From UHGV virus genome UHGV-0141541: a stretch of DNA of 64,000 nucleotides; one strand, 5' to 3'. The stretch is from a virus. Position 1 is the stretch's first letter. Each line of letters starts with the position of its first letter. Below are positions 4,523-64,000 of the stretch, piece by piece. Made by a program: the position numbers and the translations under genes. The notes beneath the pieces are model-generated. The model was given only the letters and a program-made list of their open reading frames with translations, did not search any database and had not been told where the DNA came from.

Positions 4523-6097
4523 TCACTCGTTCTCTTGAGTAGATGAGTCCCCATTCCCTCGGGGTTGATCTTGCCCGCTTTCTTGGGCTGCACCACGATC
4601 ATAAGTAAGTACTGACTTATTTTCAAGGGTGTTTAGATCATTTTTTGGAGGAAAATTCAAGAGATCTTTATCAAATTCCTTTTTCATCGCCTCAGTAATG
4701 TTCGGGAAAATCTTCTCAATAAGCATTTCCATCTGGTGACGACGTACAGAGTCCGGTGCCTGAAGTAATGACAGTTTCTCGGCAACAGAAAATTCATCAG
4801 TAAGGCCACGAATATCGAAACTTTCTGGATACGCAATTAAAGAGTGGTCTTCGTCCAGATCTACCCCCATCCATTTCGCAACCAGTAGCATGATTTGGCG
4901 TTCAGCCCTTTCCAGACGCTCTGCTTTTGTGACAAGCAAGCTATTTACACGCTGGAAGTCATACATTTTTGCGGCACCAGATGAATTATCGATTCCCTGT
5001 GCGTTGTCCTGCTTCGTTCGCTCACCAGCTACACCAACTGAATGGTAGATTTCGTTAATCACCGTCTTAATCGTAGTGATGATCATCTGAGCTTGTTTCG
5101 GGTCTGGTGACAGATAAAACGGCTGGTTTCCACCTTCAGAATCGTAGGTGAAGACTCGCTTTGTGCCCATTTCAAGCACTTTAGTGTGGTTTTCATCACC
5201 AGGTAAAAGCGACTGTACCGGTATAGCCAACTGGCTAAATGTCTGATCCTGAATAATGGCATCAAGGTTTGACAGATAGTTTGCAACCGCACGATCAAGA
5301 TAAGCGATATCATCGATTAACGATGGGCTGAAATACGGTGATTCACTTTCTCCAATACAATCAACAGGAAACACAGGAACTACGCCGAGATTATGCTCAC
5401 CGCTATCCTCTAAAATAACTTTTGCCTGACGGCGACCTGCTCCACCAGCGCCCTTCTTCACTTCCTCACGGAACAGATACCACTCGTTTTGTGTCCACAG
5501 ACGATAACGTTGGTATTCCTGACCTGTAGAAGTAAAAGGATCTGCGTCATCACGAGCGACTTCCACAATTAACGCCCATAACATATTCCCGTCGTCGTCC
5601 CATGCCACATCCAGCATTTGCTGAGGTGAAATCCAGTAGGCGTAGGCACGAGCATCTTTCTTTTTCTCGTCAGCTACTGACTCAACATCACCACTCATTG
5701 TGCTATCAACAACAACCCAGATACGGCCGTAGATTGACGATTGCAAATCAATGGCGGCCATAAATGAGTCAATAGAGGCATTCTGGCGAGTCGCACGTTT
5801 CCAGAAATTGCGGATCTGCTCTGGTGCCTCTTCGATATTTCTATGAATGTCTTCTTTAAAGAGATATTTGTTGATGAGGTTTACCACCTCACGAGTGTGG
5901 TTGAAGCGATAAGCACGCTCAACTCGCTCCTTAAACTCCTGATCTCCCTCTTTAAAGTAACGAAAGATATTGTCTGTAAACCAACCACGCCCGCCAGCGT
6001 AAGTGCTGGCGAGGAAGTCCCAATGTTCTTTTTTCTTTTCGTATTCCGGGTGGCGTCGCGCCACCAGATCCTTAATTTGTTTGTCGTTCAATTCCAT
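4523..6097 (-). CDS. portal protein (putative)
   Basis: 524 aa ORF immediately downstream of terminase large subunit; size and position typical of portal; no motif verified. Confidence 0.55.
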   Translation of the reverse strand: MELNDKQIKDLVARRHPEYEKKKEHWDFLASTYAGGRGWFTDNIFRYFKEGDQEFKERVERAYRFNHTREVVNLINKYLFKEDIHRNIEEAPEQIRNFWKRATRQNASIDSFMAAIDLQSSIYGRIWVVVDSTMSGDVESVADEKKKDARAYAYWISPQQMLDVAWDDDGNMLWALIVEVARDDADPFTSTGQEYQRYRLWTQNEWYLFREEVKKGAGGAGRRQAKVILEDSGEHNLGVVPVFPVDCIGESESPYFSPSLIDDIAYLDRAVANYLSNLDAIIQDQTFSQLAIPVQSLLPGDENHTKVLEMGTKRVFTYDSEGGNQPFYLSPDPKQAQMIITTIKTVINEIYHSVGVAGERTKQDNAQGIDNSSGAAKMYDFQRVNSLLVTKAERLERAERQIMLLVAKWMGVDLDEDHSLIAYPESFDIRGLTDEFSVAEKLSLLQAPDSVRRHQMEMLIEKIFPNITEAMKKEFDKDLLNFPPKNDLNTLENKSVLTYDRGAAQESGQDQPRGNGDSSTQENE

Positions 6098-18535: not shown

Positions 18536-18850
18536 TCAGGCTATTGCCATCACTGATGCTCTCTGAATCTCTTGCTGGGCCACGCGGTTAACTTCCATCA
18601 AAGCCAGTTCGAGCTGATGTTCCGGCCACATTCTTTGAAATGCCACCCAGCCTTTTCCACGCTGGCGACGAACATTCATTACATAACGAGTAAAGGTGTT
18701 TTTATCGAAAGACACCGCTGTTTCACGGAACAGACGAATAGAGGTTCCATTGGCAACGATGTCCAGCAAAGTTAATTGAGCAACCAGCGCAGGCTTCTCT
18801 TTTCGCTTCTGGTCTTTGTCCAGACCAAGAACCAATGATTTTTTCATCAT
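18536..18850 (-). CDS. hypothetical protein
   Basis: ORF track 18536-18877; start moved to MMKKSL (RBS GGAG) because the upstream part overlaps the conserved intergenic motif. Confidence 0.5.
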   Translation of the reverse strand: MMKKSLVLGLDKDQKRKEKPALVAQLTLLDIVANGTSIRLFRETAVSFDKNTFTRYVMNVRRQRGKGWVAFQRMWPEHQLELALMEVNRVAQQEIQRASVMAIA

Positions 18851-22260: not shown

Positions 22261-24294
22261 TTACTTAACCTGGTGGCCAGGTTTAGCACCAGCATCCGGG
22301 CTTAACAGGAAGATATCTTTCCCGCCGGGGCCAGCAGCCATCACCATGCCTTCAGAGATACCGAAGCGCATTTTACGCGGAGCCAGGTTAGCCACCATAA
22401 TGGTGTGACGACCAATCAGTGCCTGTGGATCTGGATAAGCGGAACGGATGCCTGAGAAGACATTACGCTTTTCACCACCGAGATCCAGCGTCAGGCGAAG
22501 CAGTTTGTCAGAACCTTCGACAAACTCCGCGTTTTCAATCAGCGCCACACGCAGGTCAACTTTGGCGAAGTCGTCAAAGGTGATGGTTTCCTGAATCGGG
22601 TCGTCAGCCAGTGGGCCAGTTACCGGTGCAGCTGTGGCTTTCACTTCTTCTTTGGATGCTTCCACCAGTGCTTCCACCTGTTTCATATCGATACGGTTAT
22701 ACAGTGCCTTGAACGGATTCACTTTATGGCCCAGCAGCGGTTGCTGGATACCATCCCAAGTCAGTTCTGTATTCAGGAATGCTTCTGCACGTTCAGTCAG
22801 TTTCGGCAGTACCGGTTTCAGGTACGTCATCAGCACGCGGAACAGGTTAATGCCCATAGAGCAAATCGCCTGCAGATCGGCATCGCGTCCTTCCTGCTTC
22901 GCCACCACCCACGGAGCCTGTTCATCGACATAGCGGTTAGCCAGATCAGCCAGCGCCATGATTTCACGAATCGCTTTACCAAATTCGCGGCTTTCCCATG
23001 CTTCACCAATCACTTCAGCGGCATCAGTAAAGGTTTTGTACAGTTGCGGGTCAGCCAGTTCGCCTGCCAGCACACCGTCAAAACGCTTATTGATAAAGCC
23101 CGCGTTACGGGACGCCAGATTCACCACTTTGTTCACGATATCGGCATTCACGCGCTGAACGAAATCCTCCAGGTTGAGATCGATATCATCAATGCGCGAA
23201 GAGAGTTTCGCAGTGTAGTAGTAACGCAGGCTGTCAGCGTCAAAATGATTCAGCCAGGTGCTGGCTTTAATAAAGGTGCCGCGAGACTTGGACATCTTCG
23301 CACCGTTCACCGTCACATAGCCATGAACAAACAGGTTGGTCGGCTTGCGGAAGTTGCTGCCTTCCAGCATGGCAGGCCAGAACAGGCTGTGGAAGTAAAC
23401 GATATCTTTACCGATGAAGTGGTACAGCTCGGCGGTGGAGTCTTTCTTCCAGTATTCGTCGAAGCTGGTAGTGTCGCCGCGTTTGTCGCACAGATTCTTG
23501 AAGGAACCCATGTAGCCAATCGGTGCGTCCAGCCAGACGTAGAAGTATTTGCCCGGTGCGTTCGGAATTTCAAAACCGAAGTAAGGTGCGTCACGGGAGA
23601 TATCCCACTGTTGCAGGCCAGATTCAAACCACTCCTGCATTTTGTTTGCCACCTGCTCCTGCAACGCACCGCTGCGGGTCCATGCCTGCAACATTTCGCT
23701 GAAAGAAGGCAGATCAAAGAAGAAGTGTTCGGAATCACGCATTACCGGTGTAGCGCCAGAAACCACTGATTTCGGCTCGATCAGTTCCGTCGGGCTGTAG
23801 GTCGCGCCGCAGACTTCACAGTTATCGCCGTATTGATCCGGCGCTTTACATTTCGGGCATGTGCCTTTTACAAAACGGTCCGGCAGGAACATGCCTTTTT
23901 CCGGGTCGTACAGCTGAGAGATGGTGCGGTTTTTAATAAAACCGTTCTCTTTCAGGCGAGTATAGATAAGCTCGGACAACTGACGGTTCTCTTCGCTGTG
24001 CGTCGAGTGATAGTTGTCATAGCTGATGTTAAAGCCTGCGAAATCAGTCTGATGTTCCTGACTCATTTCGCCAATCATCTGTTCCGGTGTGATACCAAGC
24101 TGCTGTGCTTTCAGCATGATTGGCGTACCGTGGGCATCGTCGGCACAGATGAAATTAACCTCGTGGCCGCGCATTCGCTGGTAACGAACCCAGACATCAG
24201 CCTGGATGTGCTCCAGCATATGGCCGAGGTGGATTGAGCCGTTAGCGTACGGCAGCGCGCACGTCACCAGAATTTTCTTCGCGACTTGGGTCAT
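22261..24294 (-). CDS. metG: methionine--tRNA ligase, host-type
   Basis: 677 aa starting [26 protein letters not shown] (HIGH motif), KMSKS present, C-terminal tRNA-binding domain; the 720-aa ORF-track start is an upstream extension. Confidence 0.95.
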
Positions 24295-24451
24295 AGTAGG
24301 CATTACTTCTTTGTAGTGAAAAGGGGCTTGATAGTAACAAAATGGCCTTATGTCTGCCATGTGATAACAGCATTTCTCATAAATGATTAAATGTCGTAGC
24401 TGGAGTACACTACAAGGCGACAATTGCGCAAATTAAAATAAAGGAGACGGG

Positions 24452-25552
24452 ATGAGCGAGTCCAAATCGCCGGATGCCCTGAGAGCAATGGTAGCCGGTA
24501 CGCTGGCTAATTTTCAGCACCCAACCCTGAAACACAACCTGACTACGCTTAAAGCGTTACACCATGTTGCGTTGATGGATGACACACTGCATGTCGAACT
24601 AATCATGCCTTTCGTGTGGAATAAGCCTTTTGAAGACCTGAAAGAGCAATGTAGTGGTGATCTGCTCCGTATCACTGGCGCAAAGGCTATTGACTGGAAG
24701 CTGTCGTACAACATTGCCACGCTTAAGCGCGTCAAAAACCAACCAGGCATTAATGGCGTTAAGAACATTATCGCCGTCAGCTCAGGCAAGGGCGGCGTGG
24801 GTAAATCCTCCACGGCGGTAAACCTGGCACTGGCGTTGGCTGCTGAAGGTGCGAAAGTTGGTATTTTGGATGCCGATATCTATGGTCCATCAATTCCAAC
24901 CATGCTGGGCGCGGAAAACCAACGTCCAACCTCACCTGACGGTACTCACATGGCACCTATCATGTCTCATGGCCTGGCAACCAACTCTATTGGTTATCTG
25001 GTCACCGACGACAATGCAATGGTGTGGCGTGGACCGATGGCCAGCAAGGCGCTGATGCAGATGTTGCAGGAAACTCTATGGCCTGATCTGGACTATCTCG
25101 TTCTCGATATGCCGCCGGGCACTGGTGATATTCAGTTGACGCTGGCGCAGAACATTCCTGTAACTGGTGCGGTTGTGGTAACTACGCCGCAAGACATCGC
25201 GCTGATCGATGCGAAGAAAGGCATTGTGATGTTCGAAAAAGTCGAAGTGCCGGTACTGGGTATCGTTGAAAACATGAGTGTGCATATTTGCAGTAACTGC
25301 GGTCATCACGAGCCAATTTTTGGCACCGGTGGCGCACAGAAACTGGCCGAGAAATACAACACGCAGTTGTTAGGCCAAATGCCACTTCATATCTCTCTTC
25401 GTGAAGATCTGGATAACGGAACACCAACCGTTATTAGTCGTCCAGATAGCGAATTTACAGCTATTTATCGTGACCTCGCAGATCGCGTTGCTGCCCAAAT
25501 GTATTGGCAAGGTGAAGTAATACCTGGCGAAATCGCATTCCGCGCAGTGTGA
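24452..25552 (+). CDS. apbC: iron-sulfur cluster carrier protein ApbC/Mrp, host-type
   Basis: 366 aa; deviant Walker A SSGKGGVGKSS, CxxC motif (CSNCGH); divergent from metG with 157-bp intergenic region, the arrangement I recall for E. coli. Confidence 0.93.
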   Translation: MSESKSPDALRAMVAGTLANFQHPTLKHNLTTLKALHHVALMDDTLHVELIMPFVWNKPFEDLKEQCSGDLLRITGAKAIDWKLSYNIATLKRVKNQPGINGVKNIIAVSSGKGGVGKSSTAVNLALALAAEGAKVGILDADIYGPSIPTMLGAENQRPTSPDGTHMAPIMSHGLATNSIGYLVTDDNAMVWRGPMASKALMQMLQETLWPDLDYLVLDMPPGTGDIQLTLAQNIPVTGAVVVTTPQDIALIDAKKGIVMFEKVEVPVLGIVENMSVHICSNCGHHEPIFGTGGAQKLAEKYNTQLLGQMPLHISLREDLDNGTPTVISRPDSEFTAIYRDLADRVAAQMYWQGEVIPGEIAFRAV

Positions 25553-25553
25553 T

Positions 25554-25580
25554 AAAAAGGCGGTGCATTGCACCGCCTAA
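25554..25580. terminator. bidirectional hairpin terminator between apbC and the UmuD'-like gene
   Basis: AGGCGGTGCA-TT-GCACCGCCT flanked by A-run and T-rich sequence. Confidence 0.55.
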
Positions 25581-25589
25581 TCAGTTCTC

Positions 25590-25979
25590 CTACATCACGG
25601 GACAATCATCAAACTCGCCACTTCTTGCGTCGTTGATAATGTGAGTGATCACACCAAACACGGCATTGCTGCCCGTGCATCCATCGTCATCCTTTGGCAA
25701 TGCTTCCTTCTTACCGGTTCTTAAATCCTCCAGATGCTGACGTGGGTACTTCCGGTATCTTTTTACGCGATATTCCCCATCCAGAGCGCATACAAGCAGA
25801 GAACCATCAACCGGGGTAAGTGAGGAATCGACCACCAGCAATGCACCCTGTAATATTCCCTCACGATGATGACTATCAGCTGCCCTCATGAAGTAGGTCG
25901 CTGAAGGATGTCTAATTATCTGCTGATCAAGAGAAATACGGCTCTCAGCATAATCCGCCGCAGGAGAAGGGAAGCCCAT
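25590..25979 (-). CDS. UmuD'-like protein (P1 HumD-like), lacking the N-terminal cleavable arm
   Basis: 129 aa starting MGFPSPAADY, matching E. coli UmuD from Gly25 (the UmuD' start); ADSH in place of GDSM. Confidence 0.75.
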   Translation of the reverse strand: MGFPSPAADYAESRISLDQQIIRHPSATYFMRAADSHHREGILQGALLVVDSSLTPVDGSLLVCALDGEYRVKRYRKYPRQHLEDLRTGKKEALPKDDDGCTGSNAVFGVITHIINDARSGEFDDCPVM

Positions 25980-26152
25980 AGCGTTTTCACCTCAAAATAC
26001 TGTTTATCCATACAGTATACATTAAAGAAGCACCTTTGGTGCAAACGCGTTATGTACATCAACCACCGCTGATGACTTTGTGCGCTTTGCTACTATTCAT
26101 CACCGCTGGATCAGCGTAACCTCGTTACTAATCAATTAATAAGGAATTAGCC

Positions 26153-26629
26153 ATGCCTGCCCGCATTCCTCTCGATCCTGCATTGCCCAAAAATTTTGAC
26201 TGCACTCCTAACGAGAAACGCTCCAAAGCCCAGCTGGACGCCTGGTGGAACCATCCCTATGGAGTTACAGAACCTGACGGGAAAATTGTTGTTTATTGTC
26301 TGAATGGTGGGGCGTGGGACCGTCCATCCATGCTTTGTTTGGCAGATAACTATGATGAAGCCTGTGAACTTGCCGAAAGACAGCAGGCCAGCTGGGTAAA
26401 AACACGGTCTGAACCGACATTCATGTTTTCAAAAGAACCGCCATTTATACTGGCAAGGATGCCGCAGCGACCGGATCATCAACAAGAAATTGTTGCTGAA
26501 TTTTCCTCAAGGGATGAGATGAATCTCTTCTCATTAAGGCAGGAAGAAAGGGATCACGTCGAAGTGTCTCCAACTCTTGATCACAACCGGATGAACCTGG
26601 CCAACTCGCCTGGTACAGCAAAGAATTAG
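26153..26629 (+). CDS. hypothetical protein
   Basis: 158 aa ORF, no motif recognised. Confidence 0.5.
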   Translation: MPARIPLDPALPKNFDCTPNEKRSKAQLDAWWNHPYGVTEPDGKIVVYCLNGGAWDRPSMLCLADNYDEACELAERQQASWVKTRSEPTFMFSKEPPFILARMPQRPDHQQEIVAEFSSRDEMNLFSLRQEERDHVEVSPTLDHNRMNLANSPGTAKN

Positions 26630-26798
26630 AGATGTCTATTGCCCGACTTGAAAACGAAAAAGCCGCTATCCAAGCCCAGCATGAAGGGGTAGTGACCGGG
26701 TAGCTACGAGAACTGCCAACTATTCGGAAAAACGTACGCTAATTAGCGTACGTTTTCATTCCATTGGGCTTCAGACGCCTTCACCGTCTTGTTCTTTG

Positions 26799-27728
26799 CT
26801 ACGGATATTCGTAATGCATGTTTTCATCCGGATAAGGGTTGTCAAACGCATTTGCAGAAACACGGATCGTCAAATTATCCGATAATCCTTCGATCATCTC
26901 CAAAATCTCAGGCGGACAACTTTTGTCAAAGGTCAACACAAAGTCATAGATCAAACCGTCATCACTACTGTTTTCCTGTGTGTCCCATTCCAGCAATTCA
27001 AGATCTTCGTCTGTTATGCCAAGCTCCGCTGCCAGTCTGCTCTGAGAAGGTTTGCCATACTTTAGCTCCGGGTCAACCCTGTCGTCATTGACGCAGCCTC
27101 CAGCTTCAAGCTCGAAATCGTAAAAACCGCGCTTGCCAGCCATGCGGGGCAATATCACCTTCACAACTATATCAAGGGTGTCACCACAGAACGGCCTATC
27201 GTCCAGAGTCTCGCCCTTGTACTGGGTTTTGGCAATAGCCACCAATTTGTCACCACGATCCTCGATTTGCACATCGTCATAATAAGCATCGAAAAATTCC
27301 GCATTGGTTTCAGCCATCAAACCGGAAAGCTGGTCATCTATAAGAGATTGGCAATCGGGTAGTAAGACTTCGACAATATAGTTTTCAAGTGTGTCATGGA
27401 TCCAGACATTTCCACCACATAGCCCTTCACTGGTAAGCATGTCTGATAGAAGCCTGGCGAGGTCAATTGACTGGGTAAGGTCATTTGGCAAACCGTTGAG
27501 TTTCGAGCGTCTGTCATTCATCAACGGTATATCAGGAATGAAGATATATGCCTCTTCGAGCTGAACCAGCGGGTAGGTCTTCTCGGCCATGAGTGCCGCA
27601 TGGCTCTTGTAACCGAAAAATGCTGCAACCAGCTCTCTTGCATGTGAAGCTTTTAGTTTTTCAGTGGATTGGGAAACATGATTTTGACGTAGGAAATCTG
27701 CGCAAAGTTTTGAGAGATCGGTACTCAT
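26799..27728 (-). CDS. highly acidic hypothetical protein
   Basis: 309 aa with a large excess of D/E over K/R; no motif recognised. Confidence 0.55.
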   Translation of the reverse strand: MSTDLSKLCADFLRQNHVSQSTEKLKASHARELVAAFFGYKSHAALMAEKTYPLVQLEEAYIFIPDIPLMNDRRSKLNGLPNDLTQSIDLARLLSDMLTSEGLCGGNVWIHDTLENYIVEVLLPDCQSLIDDQLSGLMAETNAEFFDAYYDDVQIEDRGDKLVAIAKTQYKGETLDDRPFCGDTLDIVVKVILPRMAGKRGFYDFELEAGGCVNDDRVDPELKYGKPSQSRLAAELGITDEDLELLEWDTQENSSDDGLIYDFVLTFDKSCPPEILEMIEGLSDNLTIRVSANAFDNPYPDENMHYEYP

Positions 27729-28222
27729 AGTAGTGATCCTGTCTTAACAATGCTGGACTTTAAAAGTAGTGGTAAGTGTTTAAGTCACTACGCTTGCCAG
27801 CATGGTTAATAAAGATCAACTGTCATTGGCAGGTAGTTCGACTTGCTGTCTTTTAGGTCACTTACAGCCTTGGCAATCAGCTCCGATACCTAAGATACCA
27901 GAATGGCCGATTTTAGCAAGACGAATAAATGATGCTTTCAGCTAGCCATGTCCTAGCATGGCCAGATTTTGGGTGTTCGTATTTATTTCATTGACCAGCA
28001 TTATAATCGTTAATCTGGTTACTCGGAGACGGGCTGCAACATCGAGCGCAGCGCGTGAAGGTGGAAGGATAAAAGTTGGCAGTTATCTCAGCTACCCGGT
28101 CACTCTCCCATGAAGTAGTTCTGAACCGGATTAGAGAAATGCAAAACGATAACAGAGGCTAAATCGAGGTAGAAAACACATTATTTAAGGCCACTAATTG
28201 TGGCCTTAAAGGGGAGAGATGC

Positions 28223-40047: not shown

Positions 40048-40692
40048 CTAATGAACGGTCACTCGGCCACAGAACCGGTTTTCTATCTTTTCTACAGCGT
40101 TATCTAGCATTCTCATCACTGATCTGGCTCTTGCTTCAACCGTGCGATACCGGTTGGAAACGACGAAGGTTTGCAGATCTCCCCTTTGCGGATGCAGGTG
40201 AATTTTTGTCAGTTCCCCGCACATCAACGCATCAATACGAGCGACATACAGACGGTCTAATGATGCTCGTTGTGATCGCAAGTAATCTCGCTCTGAGAGA
40301 GCGACTCCCGGGCGTAAGCCAGCAATGGCGTTAAAGTTTGAAATAGCAGTTTTGTGGCAAAACTTTTCGATATCGAGGGCTAACTCAATACACCGATCTT
40401 CATTTGTATGGCCGACCAAATCCAACGTGTAGGCCATAACATCAGCAGGTGTGCGATCGATAACAAAGCCTTCAACACCACGCGTAAGTAGCTCTATATG
40501 CTTTGCTATTTCCATTTGAATCTGAAGCCGCTCATATAGAGGCATAGAATCACCTACTCGAACACCGAGGCGGCTCATCAAACTTCCGACACCAGCATCC
40601 ACGTAAGGGATTCCGTAATGTTTGTCGATATATTTAGCCAGGGTTGTTTTCCCACTGCCCTGAGCACCAGTGATCCCAATCCGGTAATCCAT
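40048..40692 (-). CDS. P-loop kinase, possible dNMP kinase
   Basis: 214 aa; Walker A GITGAQGSGKTT at N-terminus; in nucleotide-metabolism block next to DHFR/ThyA; substrate unverified. Confidence 0.55.
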   Translation of the reverse strand: MDYRIGITGAQGSGKTTLAKYIDKHYGIPYVDAGVGSLMSRLGVRVGDSMPLYERLQIQMEIAKHIELLTRGVEGFVIDRTPADVMAYTLDLVGHTNEDRCIELALDIEKFCHKTAISNFNAIAGLRPGVALSERDYLRSQRASLDRLYVARIDALMCGELTKIHLHPQRGDLQTFVVSNRYRTVEARARSVMRMLDNAVEKIENRFCGRVTVH

Positions 40693-41168
40693 TACGACCT
40701 TCTGTATACGATCTGCGAAAAGCCAGGCTCTTCCTCGCTGGCTCGTTGGGTATAAGCTGTTTCAACAGGCACAAAGCCTAAGTTACGCATCATGCTTGCC
40801 GGGAAGAATGCATCGGCGTTTGGTACATCAACGCCGATGTGGGAGAGCCAAATCTCTTCAACATGCGGCATGAATAGCGAGTAAATTTGTTCCCCGCCAA
40901 TCACCCACACAGGCTCTGGTAATCGCAACACATCATCCATACCAGCAGGGTAGAATCCATTTGGTACAAAGCCATGAGAGCGCGTCAAAACGAGGTTATG
41001 ACGCTCTGGAAGAGGGCGTTTGAGACTTTCCATCGTTTTACGCCCCATAACGACAGTGGCGTTTTTGGTGAGTCTCTTAAATAGCTTCAGATCGGTAGAA
41101 CAACGCCAGGGGAGTTCATTCGCTATGCCGATCTCATAGTTACGGCCAACAGCAGCGATCATCTTCAT
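40692..41168 (-). CDS. folA: dihydrofolate reductase
   Basis: 158 aa; N-terminal IAAVGRNYEIG..LPW, VVMGRKT, VIGG matches DHFR family pattern. Confidence 0.8.
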   Translation of the reverse strand: MKMIAAVGRNYEIGIANELPWRCSTDLKLFKRLTKNATVVMGRKTMESLKRPLPERHNLVLTRSHGFVPNGFYPAGMDDVLRLPEPVWVIGGEQIYSLFMPHVEEIWLSHIGVDVPNADAFFPASMMRNLGFVPVETAYTQRASEEEPGFSQIVYRRS

Positions 41169-57615: not shown

Positions 57616-58689
57616 TTACTCTTCTACTGACTCGGTGGGGGTGTCTTTTGCTCTCCGGTCGTCGATTGCCTGCAAAGCCGCAATGATTTCAGCTAGTGGC
57701 TTCTCCCGATACATCTCGACGATCTGTGATTTGGTGTATTTCTTGTCGCCAATTTCTACTCGACCGCTTGCGTTCTTTGGCAGGTATCCTTCATCCAGCA
57801 TGTACTCGACGAGCGATTCGATAACGTCGAGGCCACGAGTAGGATCGAAGTAGAATTTCCAGGTGCACTTGCCATAAGGTGGTGCAACTTTGTTTTTGAT
57901 GCACTCTGCGCCTACGTCCTGACCGATCTTCTCTTTACCATCCTTCATCACCGATGCACCGAGACGGATGCGCACAGAAGCGTAAAACTTCGGCGAATCG
58001 CCACCTGGTGACGTCGTAGGGTCGCCAAACATTACACCGATTTTTGTGCGAACCTGATTCAAGAAGATGATGCAGGCGTTGTATTTGCGTGCCCACAAAG
58101 CCAGAGTGGGGAAGTTCGCACTCGTCGCACGAGCCAGCGCCGTATTGTCATTCATGTTTAGCTGATCTTTGTCTTTGGCAGTGCCTTCAGCCATCTTTTC
58201 GAACTTCTCGGCTTTGGAGTTCGGAACCATAGACGCAAGTGAGTCCGCCACGATACAGATAGGTGCTGATTCAGGGATAAGCTCTTCATCACGTACCAAT
58301 TTAAGTATTGTGCCGATCAACTCCACAGAGTCTTCGAAGGTATCTGGCTGCTTGTATACCCACTGGCCGTCATCTTCATCTGCGTTCAGACCATTGGCGA
58401 CAGCCAGGCCAACGTCAAAACTGTTCTCATGATCGAGGAATACCGCCAGACCATCTTGTTTCTGAGCGGAGATCATTGCTGCCGTTGCCAAAAAGGTTTT
58501 CCCCGCGCTTGGCGGCCCGAATACTTCTACGATACGACCACATGGGAAACCGCCATCGTAACGACCGGAAATCGCTTTGTTTAACGGAGGAAAGCCTGTG
58601 TCAATCCAATGAGTTACTTTCTGTATTTCGTCGTTGCTACCGATTTTCTTTTTCAGAGCAAGTGCCAGTGCGGATTTTCCTTTTGCCAT
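57616..58689 (-). CDS. RecA-family recombinase
   Basis: 357 aa; GRIVEVFGPPSAGKT Walker A in RecA-like context, Walker B region IVADSL. Confidence 0.75.
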   Translation of the reverse strand: MAKGKSALALALKKKIGSNDEIQKVTHWIDTGFPPLNKAISGRYDGGFPCGRIVEVFGPPSAGKTFLATAAMISAQKQDGLAVFLDHENSFDVGLAVANGLNADEDDGQWVYKQPDTFEDSVELIGTILKLVRDEELIPESAPICIVADSLASMVPNSKAEKFEKMAEGTAKDKDQLNMNDNTALARATSANFPTLALWARKYNACIIFLNQVRTKIGVMFGDPTTSPGGDSPKFYASVRIRLGASVMKDGKEKIGQDVGAECIKNKVAPPYGKCTWKFYFDPTRGLDVIESLVEYMLDEGYLPKNASGRVEIGDKKYTKSQIVEMYREKPLAEIIAALQAIDDRRAKDTPTESVEE

Positions 58690-62594: not shown

Positions 62595-64000
62595 TCATTT
62601 GCTAATAGTCTCCGCTACCTCTGCCAGAATTGCTTCCAGCTTTTCGCCTTCCTCTGGGCGAAAGTACAAAATATTCGGGTTAAATCCGTAGAAAACAGTC
62701 ACATCCAGCTCCGGCAGATACTCTTTGCGTCCAACCAGGTCGGATGGTTTGATCTTGTTGTTGAAGAGCGACGTTGCCCGGCTGCCACACGTCAGCACAT
62801 AGGTCGGACGCACCAGATTGATCTCTTCACGCATAAAGTCGGTGAACTGGCCGATCTCGTCTTTGGTGTAGTCTTTTTCTTTGTCTTTAACCTTCTTGCA
62901 AACGCCTGTGACATAGAGATCGCCCATGCGTAAATCTCCAGCCGTCAATAGCTTGGCCTTAAAATCGTCGTATCCGTTCTCCATAAAGTAACCGGTTCGA
63001 GCATCATTGCCGTTCGCATTGTCCAGAATGATCATGATTTTCGGCTTAATACCAATGCTGGGGCGGATTAGTTCATCACCTAAGCCCATTTCAGCCGCCA
63101 TCCGTGTCATGAGCACGTTAATCTCAGCCGAACGTTTGGGGTTCATCTCAAACGGACGTGAGGCTTTAACTGCATCTATGACAAGGTTTCCCATCAATTC
63201 AGCCTGGTCGCGGAGGCGCTCTGGATCAGTTGCTGGCAGACTACCTGGCTCGATGGATGCAAACGCCCCTACTTTTTGCAGCGATTCGCGCACTCGACTA
63301 TTACAGGCACGTTTCTCGACAGCTTCTTCGAATTGCGCAAGTGACTCGAATTTGCCGCCAACCTTTTCTCGCGCTCTCATGATGGCCTGGCAGCCATTCT
63401 CAGAACACCCCTTCACAGCAGAGAAGGGCGCATACAGCACCTGGCTGCCATCTTCAAGCGTGCGGATCTCGATTCGGTTAGATGACACGTTAACGTCTGG
63501 TGGCAATACGCGAATACCATAGGTCAGCGCATCTTTAACCAGCCCCTGGTGTTTATCTTCGCCAAGAATAGTGAGAGCAGCAGCGAAAAACTCTGCGGGA
63601 TAATGAGTTTTCAACCACATAGATTGATAACTGATTAAGGAGTAAGCAACAGAGTGTGATTTGTTGAACTGGTAGGCACCATTCTTTTCGAATGCGGTCC
63701 AGATCTCCTTCGCTTTCATCTCTGATAGCCCTGGATGTGACGCTGTAACGCGTACTGCGTTTATAGGTAGTTTTGCACCGAACTCAAGTGCCTCTTCGAC
63801 AGTTTTCAGAGTTCCGTCTTCGCATTTAAAATGTTCCGCACGGTGAATGCGCTGTGTAGTGCCATCTTCCAGCTCAACGTCGATCCAGCCAGCTTGAGCC
63901 TGAACGATGAACTTCTCACCCATGCTCTTCATTTTCTCCATGTCTTTTTTGCCGATCGCTTTACGAACGCCGTCAGCTTCAGCCATTGTGAAGCCGGCAA
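62595..64000 (-). CDS. dnaE: DNA polymerase III alpha (DnaE-type), C-terminal part; runs off the window edge
   Basis: FNKSHSVAYSLISYQSMWLKTHYPAEFFAAAL closely matches the DnaE motif; ORF has no in-window start, so 5' partial; C-terminal ~170 aa unassigned. Confidence 0.8.
   Translation of the reverse strand, partial: AGFTMAEADGVRKAIGKKDMEKMKSMGEKFIVQAQAGWIDVELEDGTTQRIHRAEHFKCEDGTLKTVEEALEFGAKLPINAVRVTASHPGLSEMKAKEIWTAFEKNGAYQFNKSHSVAYSLISYQSMWLKTHYPAEFFAAALTILGEDKHQGLVKDALTYGIRVLPPDVNVSSNRIEIRTLEDGSQVLYAPFSAVKGCSENGCQAIMRAREKVGGKFESLAQFEEAVEKRACNSRVRESLQKVGAFASIEPGSLPATDPERLRDQAELMGNLVIDAVKASRPFEMNPKRSAEINVLMTRMAAEMGLGDELIRPSIGIKPKIMIILDNANGNDARTGYFMENGYDDFKAKLLTAGDLRMGDLYVTGVCKKVKDKEKDYTKDEIGQFTDFMREEINLVRPTYVLTCGSRATSLFNNKIKPSDLVGRKEYLPELDVTVFYGFNPNILYFRPEEGEKLEAILAEVAETISK

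Follow-up and report, generated by a model that had tools for sequence, protein, structure and literature searches.

The 64,000-nucleotide stretch of viral DNA analysed here (the window) carries humD, a 129-amino-acid open reading frame with an ATG start on the minus strand at 25590-25979, whose product is a HumD-family analogue of UmuD'. It is an ortholog of HumD of phage P1 and is already catalogued, so that it does not represent a new case. Very probably, the gene is LexA-repressed and supplies a UmuD' analogue of the P1 HumD type that acts with the UmuC of the host, on a phage-plasmid that encodes no polymerase for it.

The protein, which opens with MGFPSPAADYAESRISLDQQ, was aligned with UmuD of E. 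coli K-12 and HumD of P1, both taken from annotated records. In this three-way alignment, residues M1-G2-F3-P4-S5-P6-A7 lay opposite C24|G25-F-P-S-P-A of UmuD, in which Cys24|Gly25 is the site of RecA*-stimulated self-cleavage, confirming the original prediction that the protein begins at the equivalent of Gly25. Reading the humD frame upstream gave '...*GENAM GFPSPA...', with a stop five codons ahead of the ATG, so no upstream start can supply an N-terminal arm, and the absence of an arm expected in that prediction was borne out. A Shine-Dalgarno sequence, GAGGTG, was read from the sequence at 25988-25993 (minus strand), 8 nt ahead of the ATG, and is the same in P1. The catalytic dyad was located by the same three-way alignment, with S36 corresponding to Ser60 of UmuD and K73 to Lys97; the canonical G-D-S-M around the nucleophile reads A-D-S-H in the window protein, and residues 116-129 form the HumD-specific C-terminal tail (INDARSGEFDDCPVM).

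For family assignment, the NCBIfam HumD equivalog model NF051876 ('HumD family translesion DNA polymerase', curated cut-off 120 bits) was matched at 219.8 bits (E = 8e-66) over residues 1-129 of 129, and Pfam Peptidase_S24 (PF00717) was matched at 37.9 bits against a cut-off of 23.3 (E = 1.6e-9). The domain match and the aligned Ser/Lys dyad S36/K73 place the protein in peptidase family S24, and the full-length model match, the start at the Gly25 equivalent, the orphan gene and the LexA operator upstream support membership of the HumD family. The UmuD model (NF007621 / PRK10276) scored 87 bits and did not reach its cut-off of 110; with this sub-threshold score and no cleavable arm, the protein is not a UmuD, though it would work like UmuD'. 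The nearest solved structures by sequence were those of UmuD' (1umu, E = 6.7e-23, and 1i4v) and of UmuD in Pol V (8gmt), and the predicted fold is taken from the match to the UmuD' structures. An identical protein is deposited in RefSeq as WP_000506720.1 under the same name as the NCBIfam model, and another is encoded by Escherichia phage Cyrano (108 kb).

HumD of P1 (AAQ14181) likewise has 129 residues, is 91% identical to the window protein, starts with MGFPSPAADY and has the C-terminal tail in common. This identity, the full-length match to the HumD model and the missing arm support the earlier proposal that the gene encodes an already processed UmuD', as in P1. The Shine-Dalgarno sequence, the position of the LexA box, the divergent lxr (92%) and the lack of umuC on the element are in P1 as in the window. 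The two loci differ in the element that carries them (P1 for the one, an SSU5/pHCM2-like phage-plasmid for the other), in the sequence downstream of humD (phd-doc in P1, a captured apbC-metG pair in the window), and at the 3' end of lxr, which is frameshifted in the window relative to P1. By blastn, the stretch from lxr through the LexA box to humD (25591-26686) aligned with P1 (piece coordinates 1792-2889) at 91% nucleotide identity, and both blastn and the alignment placed the end of P1 homology at the humD stop codon. Among the matches listed, P1-type phage proteins were 90.7-93.0% identical to the window protein.

E. coli UmuD/UmuD' and the window protein have the S24 C-terminal domain in common at 44% identity, with GFPSPAADY and the positions of the Ser/Lys dyad aligned, and a LexA box also lies ~39 nt upstream of the umuD start. 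In contrast, UmuD has a 24-residue N-terminal arm and a Cys-Gly cleavage site, both of which the window protein lacks, so it has no RecA*-dependent activation step; umuD stands in an operon with umuC, whereas humD in the window has no umuC; and relative to UmuD, HumD is longer by an insertion of 4 residues and by 10 residues at its C-terminus.

More distant relatives were found in other phages and plasmids, where the orphan, LexA-boxed arrangement recurs for N15 gp26, phiKO2 Gp23 and the homologues of HK140 and pAEv1818. N15 gp26, phiKO2 Gp23 and the UmuD-like protein of HK140 have 126-129 residues and are 64-71% identical to the window protein; they resemble it in their start, tail and LexA box and have no umuC nearby, and they differ in having Thr at the Ser60 equivalent, where the window protein has Ser, and in their divergent partner, which is dinI or none instead of lxr. 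Their genes occupy moron-like sites beside tail-fibre, partition or integrase genes. In phiKO2, the dinI homologue Gp22 (piece coordinates 1181-1423) diverges from the HumD-like gene across the LexA site, and in HK140, the dinI homologue gp26 (piece coordinates 910-1176) diverges from a LexA-boxed pair of gp27 and the humD-like gene; P1 and the window carry lxr where these two phages carry the dinI homologue. The product of dinI is a RecA-filament binding protein.

The LexA (SOS) box of the window, TACTGTATGGATAAACAGTA on the humD strand, spans 25998-26017 and starts 38 nt 5' of the humD ATG. It contains an exact CTGT-N8-ACAG (26000-26015) between humD and the divergent lxr, and it aligned with the P1 site annotated as 'LexA binding site in the regulatory region of lxr and humD'. 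Its offset of -38 compares with -39 for both E. coli umuD and P1, and comparable LexA boxes precede the homologues in N15, phiKO2, HK140 and pAEv1818. On this sequence evidence humD is predicted to be SOS-regulated through a consensus LexA operator in common with lxr, to which LexA would bind. A second exact CTGT-N8-ACAG was found at 18718-18733 (CTGTTTCACGGAACAG) and is probably not a LexA site, given its AT-poor spacer and a chance expectation for the motif of 0.8 per window; 16 of 100 shuffles gave two or more. Scanning for sigma-70 promoters near the LexA box returned no site under the scan criteria; a TATACT hexamer overlaps the box, and no promoter is claimed for it.

The lxr homologue (26153-26629, plus strand) is divergent from humD and 92% identical to P1 Lxr over 150 residues; in P1, lxr is described as a 'LexA-regulated function'. 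It encodes 158 residues, against 190 in P1, because one nucleotide is missing from a G run close to its 3' end, which replaces the C-terminal 40 residues; no Pfam family was matched by the lxr homologue. On the other side of humD, a terminator scan located a terminator-like hairpin with a T run (25558-25578, minus strand) just past the humD stop, filling the 37-nt gap between humD and the convergent apbC. The hairpin was compared with P1 and with the sequence that follows apbC on the K-12 chromosome and was homologous to neither, so an origin in either was rejected.

Comparison of humD with its P1 counterpart gave 57 differences in 390 nt and 11 substitutions in 129 residues, corresponding to a dS of 0.80, a dN of 0.042 and a dN/dS of 0.05, from which we conclude that humD is functional and constrained by strong purifying selection. 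The dS of lxr against P1 was 0.14, far below that of the adjoining humD, so the cassette is mosaic, and the contrast points to a recent recombinational exchange with a P1-like element in the sequence immediately ahead of humD. Two sister plasmids (NZ_AP027904.1, piece coordinates 4745-4930, and NZ_CP019027.1) were compared with positions 26031-28109 of the window; in such SSU5-like plasmids the humD allele and LexA box were identical or nearly so, and the sequence just upstream differed. The upstream flank of humD is, as judged from these comparisons, a recombination hot spot. In NZ_AP027904.1, a P1-like upfM-to-hot sequence replaces lxr and is followed by a type I restriction-modification system; its hot encodes a homologue of pol III theta, 86% identical to P1 Hot. 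NZ_CP019027.1 is without an equivalent of window positions 26235-28108, and lxr is largely deleted.

The window matched the E. coli plasmid pS2-S1K81-2 (NZ_CP107145.1, 111,932 bp, circular) at 99.995-100% identity over four blocks. This plasmid carries phage genes for portal, terminase, capsid, tape-measure and tail-fibre proteins, together with genes for RepB, ParB, DnaE, a DnaB-like helicase, RecA, NrdAB, ThyA, DHFR, RNase HI, ligase and four tRNAs, a gene content that we take to be that of SSU5/pHCM2-like phage-plasmids. The window is thus part of an SSU5/pHCM2-like E. coli phage-plasmid of ~112 kb, not of a chromosome. Its RecA-family gene (57616-58689, minus strand; Pfam RecA, 145.8 bits) and its gene for a DnaE pol III alpha subunit (62595-63986 onwards, minus strand) are the element's own, and its four tRNAs lie outside the window.

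A polymerase partner was searched for by tblastn with E. coli UmuC against the window and against pieces covering the whole 111,932-bp plasmid, with a best E of 0.77, and the PGAP annotation of the whole of pS2-S1K81-2 contained no Y-family polymerase. The statement that the window shows no umuC-like partner therefore stood, and the search for a umuC/dinB-like gene extended with it to the rest of the element gave the same result. On the host side, of 5426 complete E. coli genomes, 5369 contained at least 80% of a umuDC query and 5423 gave some match, so host UmuC should almost always be available.

In the mechanism that we favour, host LexA would repress humD through the predicted SOS box held in common with the divergent lxr. 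HumD consists of the C-terminal S24-type domain alone, and its start corresponds to the new N-terminus that RecA*-stimulated self-cleavage leaves on UmuD, so that it is made directly in the UmuD' form. By analogy with P1, HumD would be made upon DNA damage, would dimerise, and would assemble with host UmuC and RecA* into a Pol V-like translesion polymerase (HumD2-UmuC), the partner being host UmuC since the element is without a polymerase subunit of its own; on the same analogy, HumD2-UmuC would bypass the slow checkpoint of UmuD-to-UmuD' cleavage. The role of the window HumD with host UmuC in vivo is what we infer from P1, and the element would most plausibly benefit through the bypass of lesions in its own DNA when SOS or induction occurs.

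For P1, the sequence record notes that HumD "functionally complements E. coli UmuD'", and the title of McLenigan et al. 1999 (J Bacteriol 181:7005) states the same complementation by P1 HumD. In a CRISPRi screen P1 humD was dispensable for lytic growth, so any benefit probably falls in the plasmid-prophage state or during induction after damage. HumD of P1 reportedly dimerises, binds host UmuC and RecA nucleoprotein filaments, and is said to restore SOS mutagenesis in strains unable to cleave UmuD, with strong complementation reportedly confined to expression from a high-copy plasmid because HumD is poorly expressed. On these grounds, bulk mutagenesis may not be what HumD does naturally.

The spread of HumD was examined in plasmids and proteins. 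In PLSDB, 690 plasmids encode HumD at E ≤ 1e-30, comprising 182 at 95% identity or more (sampled records about 72-114 kb) and 459 at 90-95% identity (sampled records mostly about 80-100 kb, with a few up to 147 kb), the ~80-100 kb of the latter group being usual for P1-like plasmids. Among 5.8 billion proteins searched, 555 relatives reached E ≤ 1e-10, of which the best 120 were nearly all 126-130 residues long, many already named HumD, and came from Escherichia, Salmonella, Citrobacter, Klebsiella, Enterobacter, Kluyvera and Trabulsiella. Longer relatives (148-223 residues) were considered as proteins with a genuine N-terminal arm and rejected, their extra residues being unrelated to UmuD 1-24 and without a Cys/Ala-Gly site; these entries look like over-long gene calls, which would contain translated upstream DNA. 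Several are widely replicated, and some are named 'LexA family transcriptional regulator'. A literature search combining SSU5 with UmuD found nothing.

Conservation was counted in 96 cluster representatives of 126-130 residues (129 in 55, 128 in 26, 127 in 8, 130 in 4 and 126 in 3). The MGFPSPA start was present in 93 of the 96, and the tail INDARxxEFDDCPVM, which is missing from UmuD, was nearly invariant (E122 and D124 in all 96, F123 and P127 in 95 each). The Ser60 equivalent was Ser in 52, Thr in 42 and Ala in 2, and in a distant Aeromonas phage homologue, compared by eye with the UmuD motifs, Ala stands at the nucleophile and Arg in place of Lys. Since the nucleophile varies, peptidase chemistry is no conserved requirement, as expected in a protein that no longer needs self-cleavage, and catalysis is probably dispensable in the HumD family. 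An AlphaFold2 model computed from the 96-sequence alignment had a mean pLDDT of 54.5, falling below 50 in the tail (117-129) and in residues 1-24; the alignment behind it is shallow, all members being at least 67% identical, and the model is uninformative on the tail. A nearly invariant tail that is missing from UmuD' hints that HumD may do more than imitate UmuD'.

The tail bears most directly on an alternative that we regard as unlikely, in which HumD is chiefly a modulator, not an activator, and mutagenesis is a side activity seen on over-expression. HumD would then titrate host UmuD/UmuD' or form heterodimers with them, or associate with RecA* filaments or with subunits of pol III, tuning SOS, recombination or replication to the benefit of the phage-plasmid. 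UmuD and UmuD' bind the alpha, beta and epsilon subunits of pol III, and UmuD'2C inhibits RecA-mediated recombination, properties that agree with such a role, as do the near-invariance of E122, F123, D124, D125, C126 and P127, which outdoes that of the nucleophile position, the linkage of the locus with dinI (phiKO2, HK140) and with hot, the pol III theta homologue (P1, NZ_AP027904.1), and the RecA-family protein and DnaE that the element itself encodes. This gene linkage is circumstantial, however, and differs between elements, and the only direct data on the family, UmuD' complementation and reported binding to UmuC and RecA filaments by P1 HumD, favour the UmuD'-like role. A further reading, to which we give little credence, takes the tail, the decaying Ser and the linkage to dinI, hot or lxr together as signs of a phage-specific interaction, for example with RecA*, pol III or the RecA/DnaE of the element, that might redirect or restrain the host damage response to the advantage of phage-plasmids.

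It is very improbable that HumD is an active S24 peptidase cutting another protein in trans, such as host UmuD or a repressor. Cleavage of UmuD can be intermolecular with UmuD' as the enzyme, and both S36 and K73 are kept in the window protein, K73 being kept in 95 of 96 relatives; against this stand the Ser, Thr and Ala counts at the nucleophile position (52, 42 and 2 of 96), the Ala/Arg pair of the Aeromonas phage homologue, and the replacement of the G-D-S-M context by A-D-S-H. That humD is a 5'-truncated remnant of umuDC (a pseudogene) or a mis-called LexA-type repressor, as the database names and 148-223-residue lengths of some relatives might suggest, is refuted by its dN/dS of 0.05, its own Shine-Dalgarno sequence and LexA box, the conserved MGFPSPA start, a score of 27.2 bits against a cut-off of 110.95 for the LexA model TIGR00498 (which was matched at profile positions 91-166 alone), and the alignment of all 129 residues to the UmuD' core, which leaves no room for a DNA-binding domain.

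The reading of humD as a LexA-repressed UmuD' analogue that acts with host UmuC places it in a known system. The family was already described for P1 in 1999, together with its pre-processed form and the orphan status of the gene, and it now has a curated NCBIfam model; with that description, the model and the RefSeq name on an identical protein, the window gene has small value as a discovery. What the analysis brings together is that both large E. coli phage-plasmid families, P1-like and SSU5-like, carry one LexA-controlled humD module, that this module recombines between them, and that the HumD family retains a conserved C-terminal tail while its peptidase nucleophile drifts. Because P1- and SSU5-like elements disseminate resistance genes in E. 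coli, a mutagenesis cofactor that is induced by damage and bypasses the RecA-cleavage checkpoint bears on antibiotic-induced mutagenesis, an idea that is not new.

Two further features of the window were recorded. A phage-type DHFR gene (40692-41168, minus strand) lies beside thymidylate synthase; in the PGAP annotation of the identical plasmid it is called 'trimethoprim-resistant dihydrofolate reductase DfrA51', so that a nucleotide-metabolism gene of the phage-plasmid backbone is labelled as a resistance gene. Adjacent to humD, the element carries full-length copies of two host housekeeping genes, metG, encoding methionyl-tRNA synthetase (22261-24294, minus strand), and apbC (24452-25552, plus strand), the two standing in the chromosomal divergent arrangement. 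Over 22261-25552, this pair is ~90% identical in nucleotide sequence to the E. coli chromosomal copies, and homology to K-12 ends near the two stop codons. A search with the metG-apbC stretch found 223 matching places on plasmids, with 216 records at 95% identity or more, and the pair was probably either captured long ago and fixed in this lineage of plasmids or acquired from a related species.
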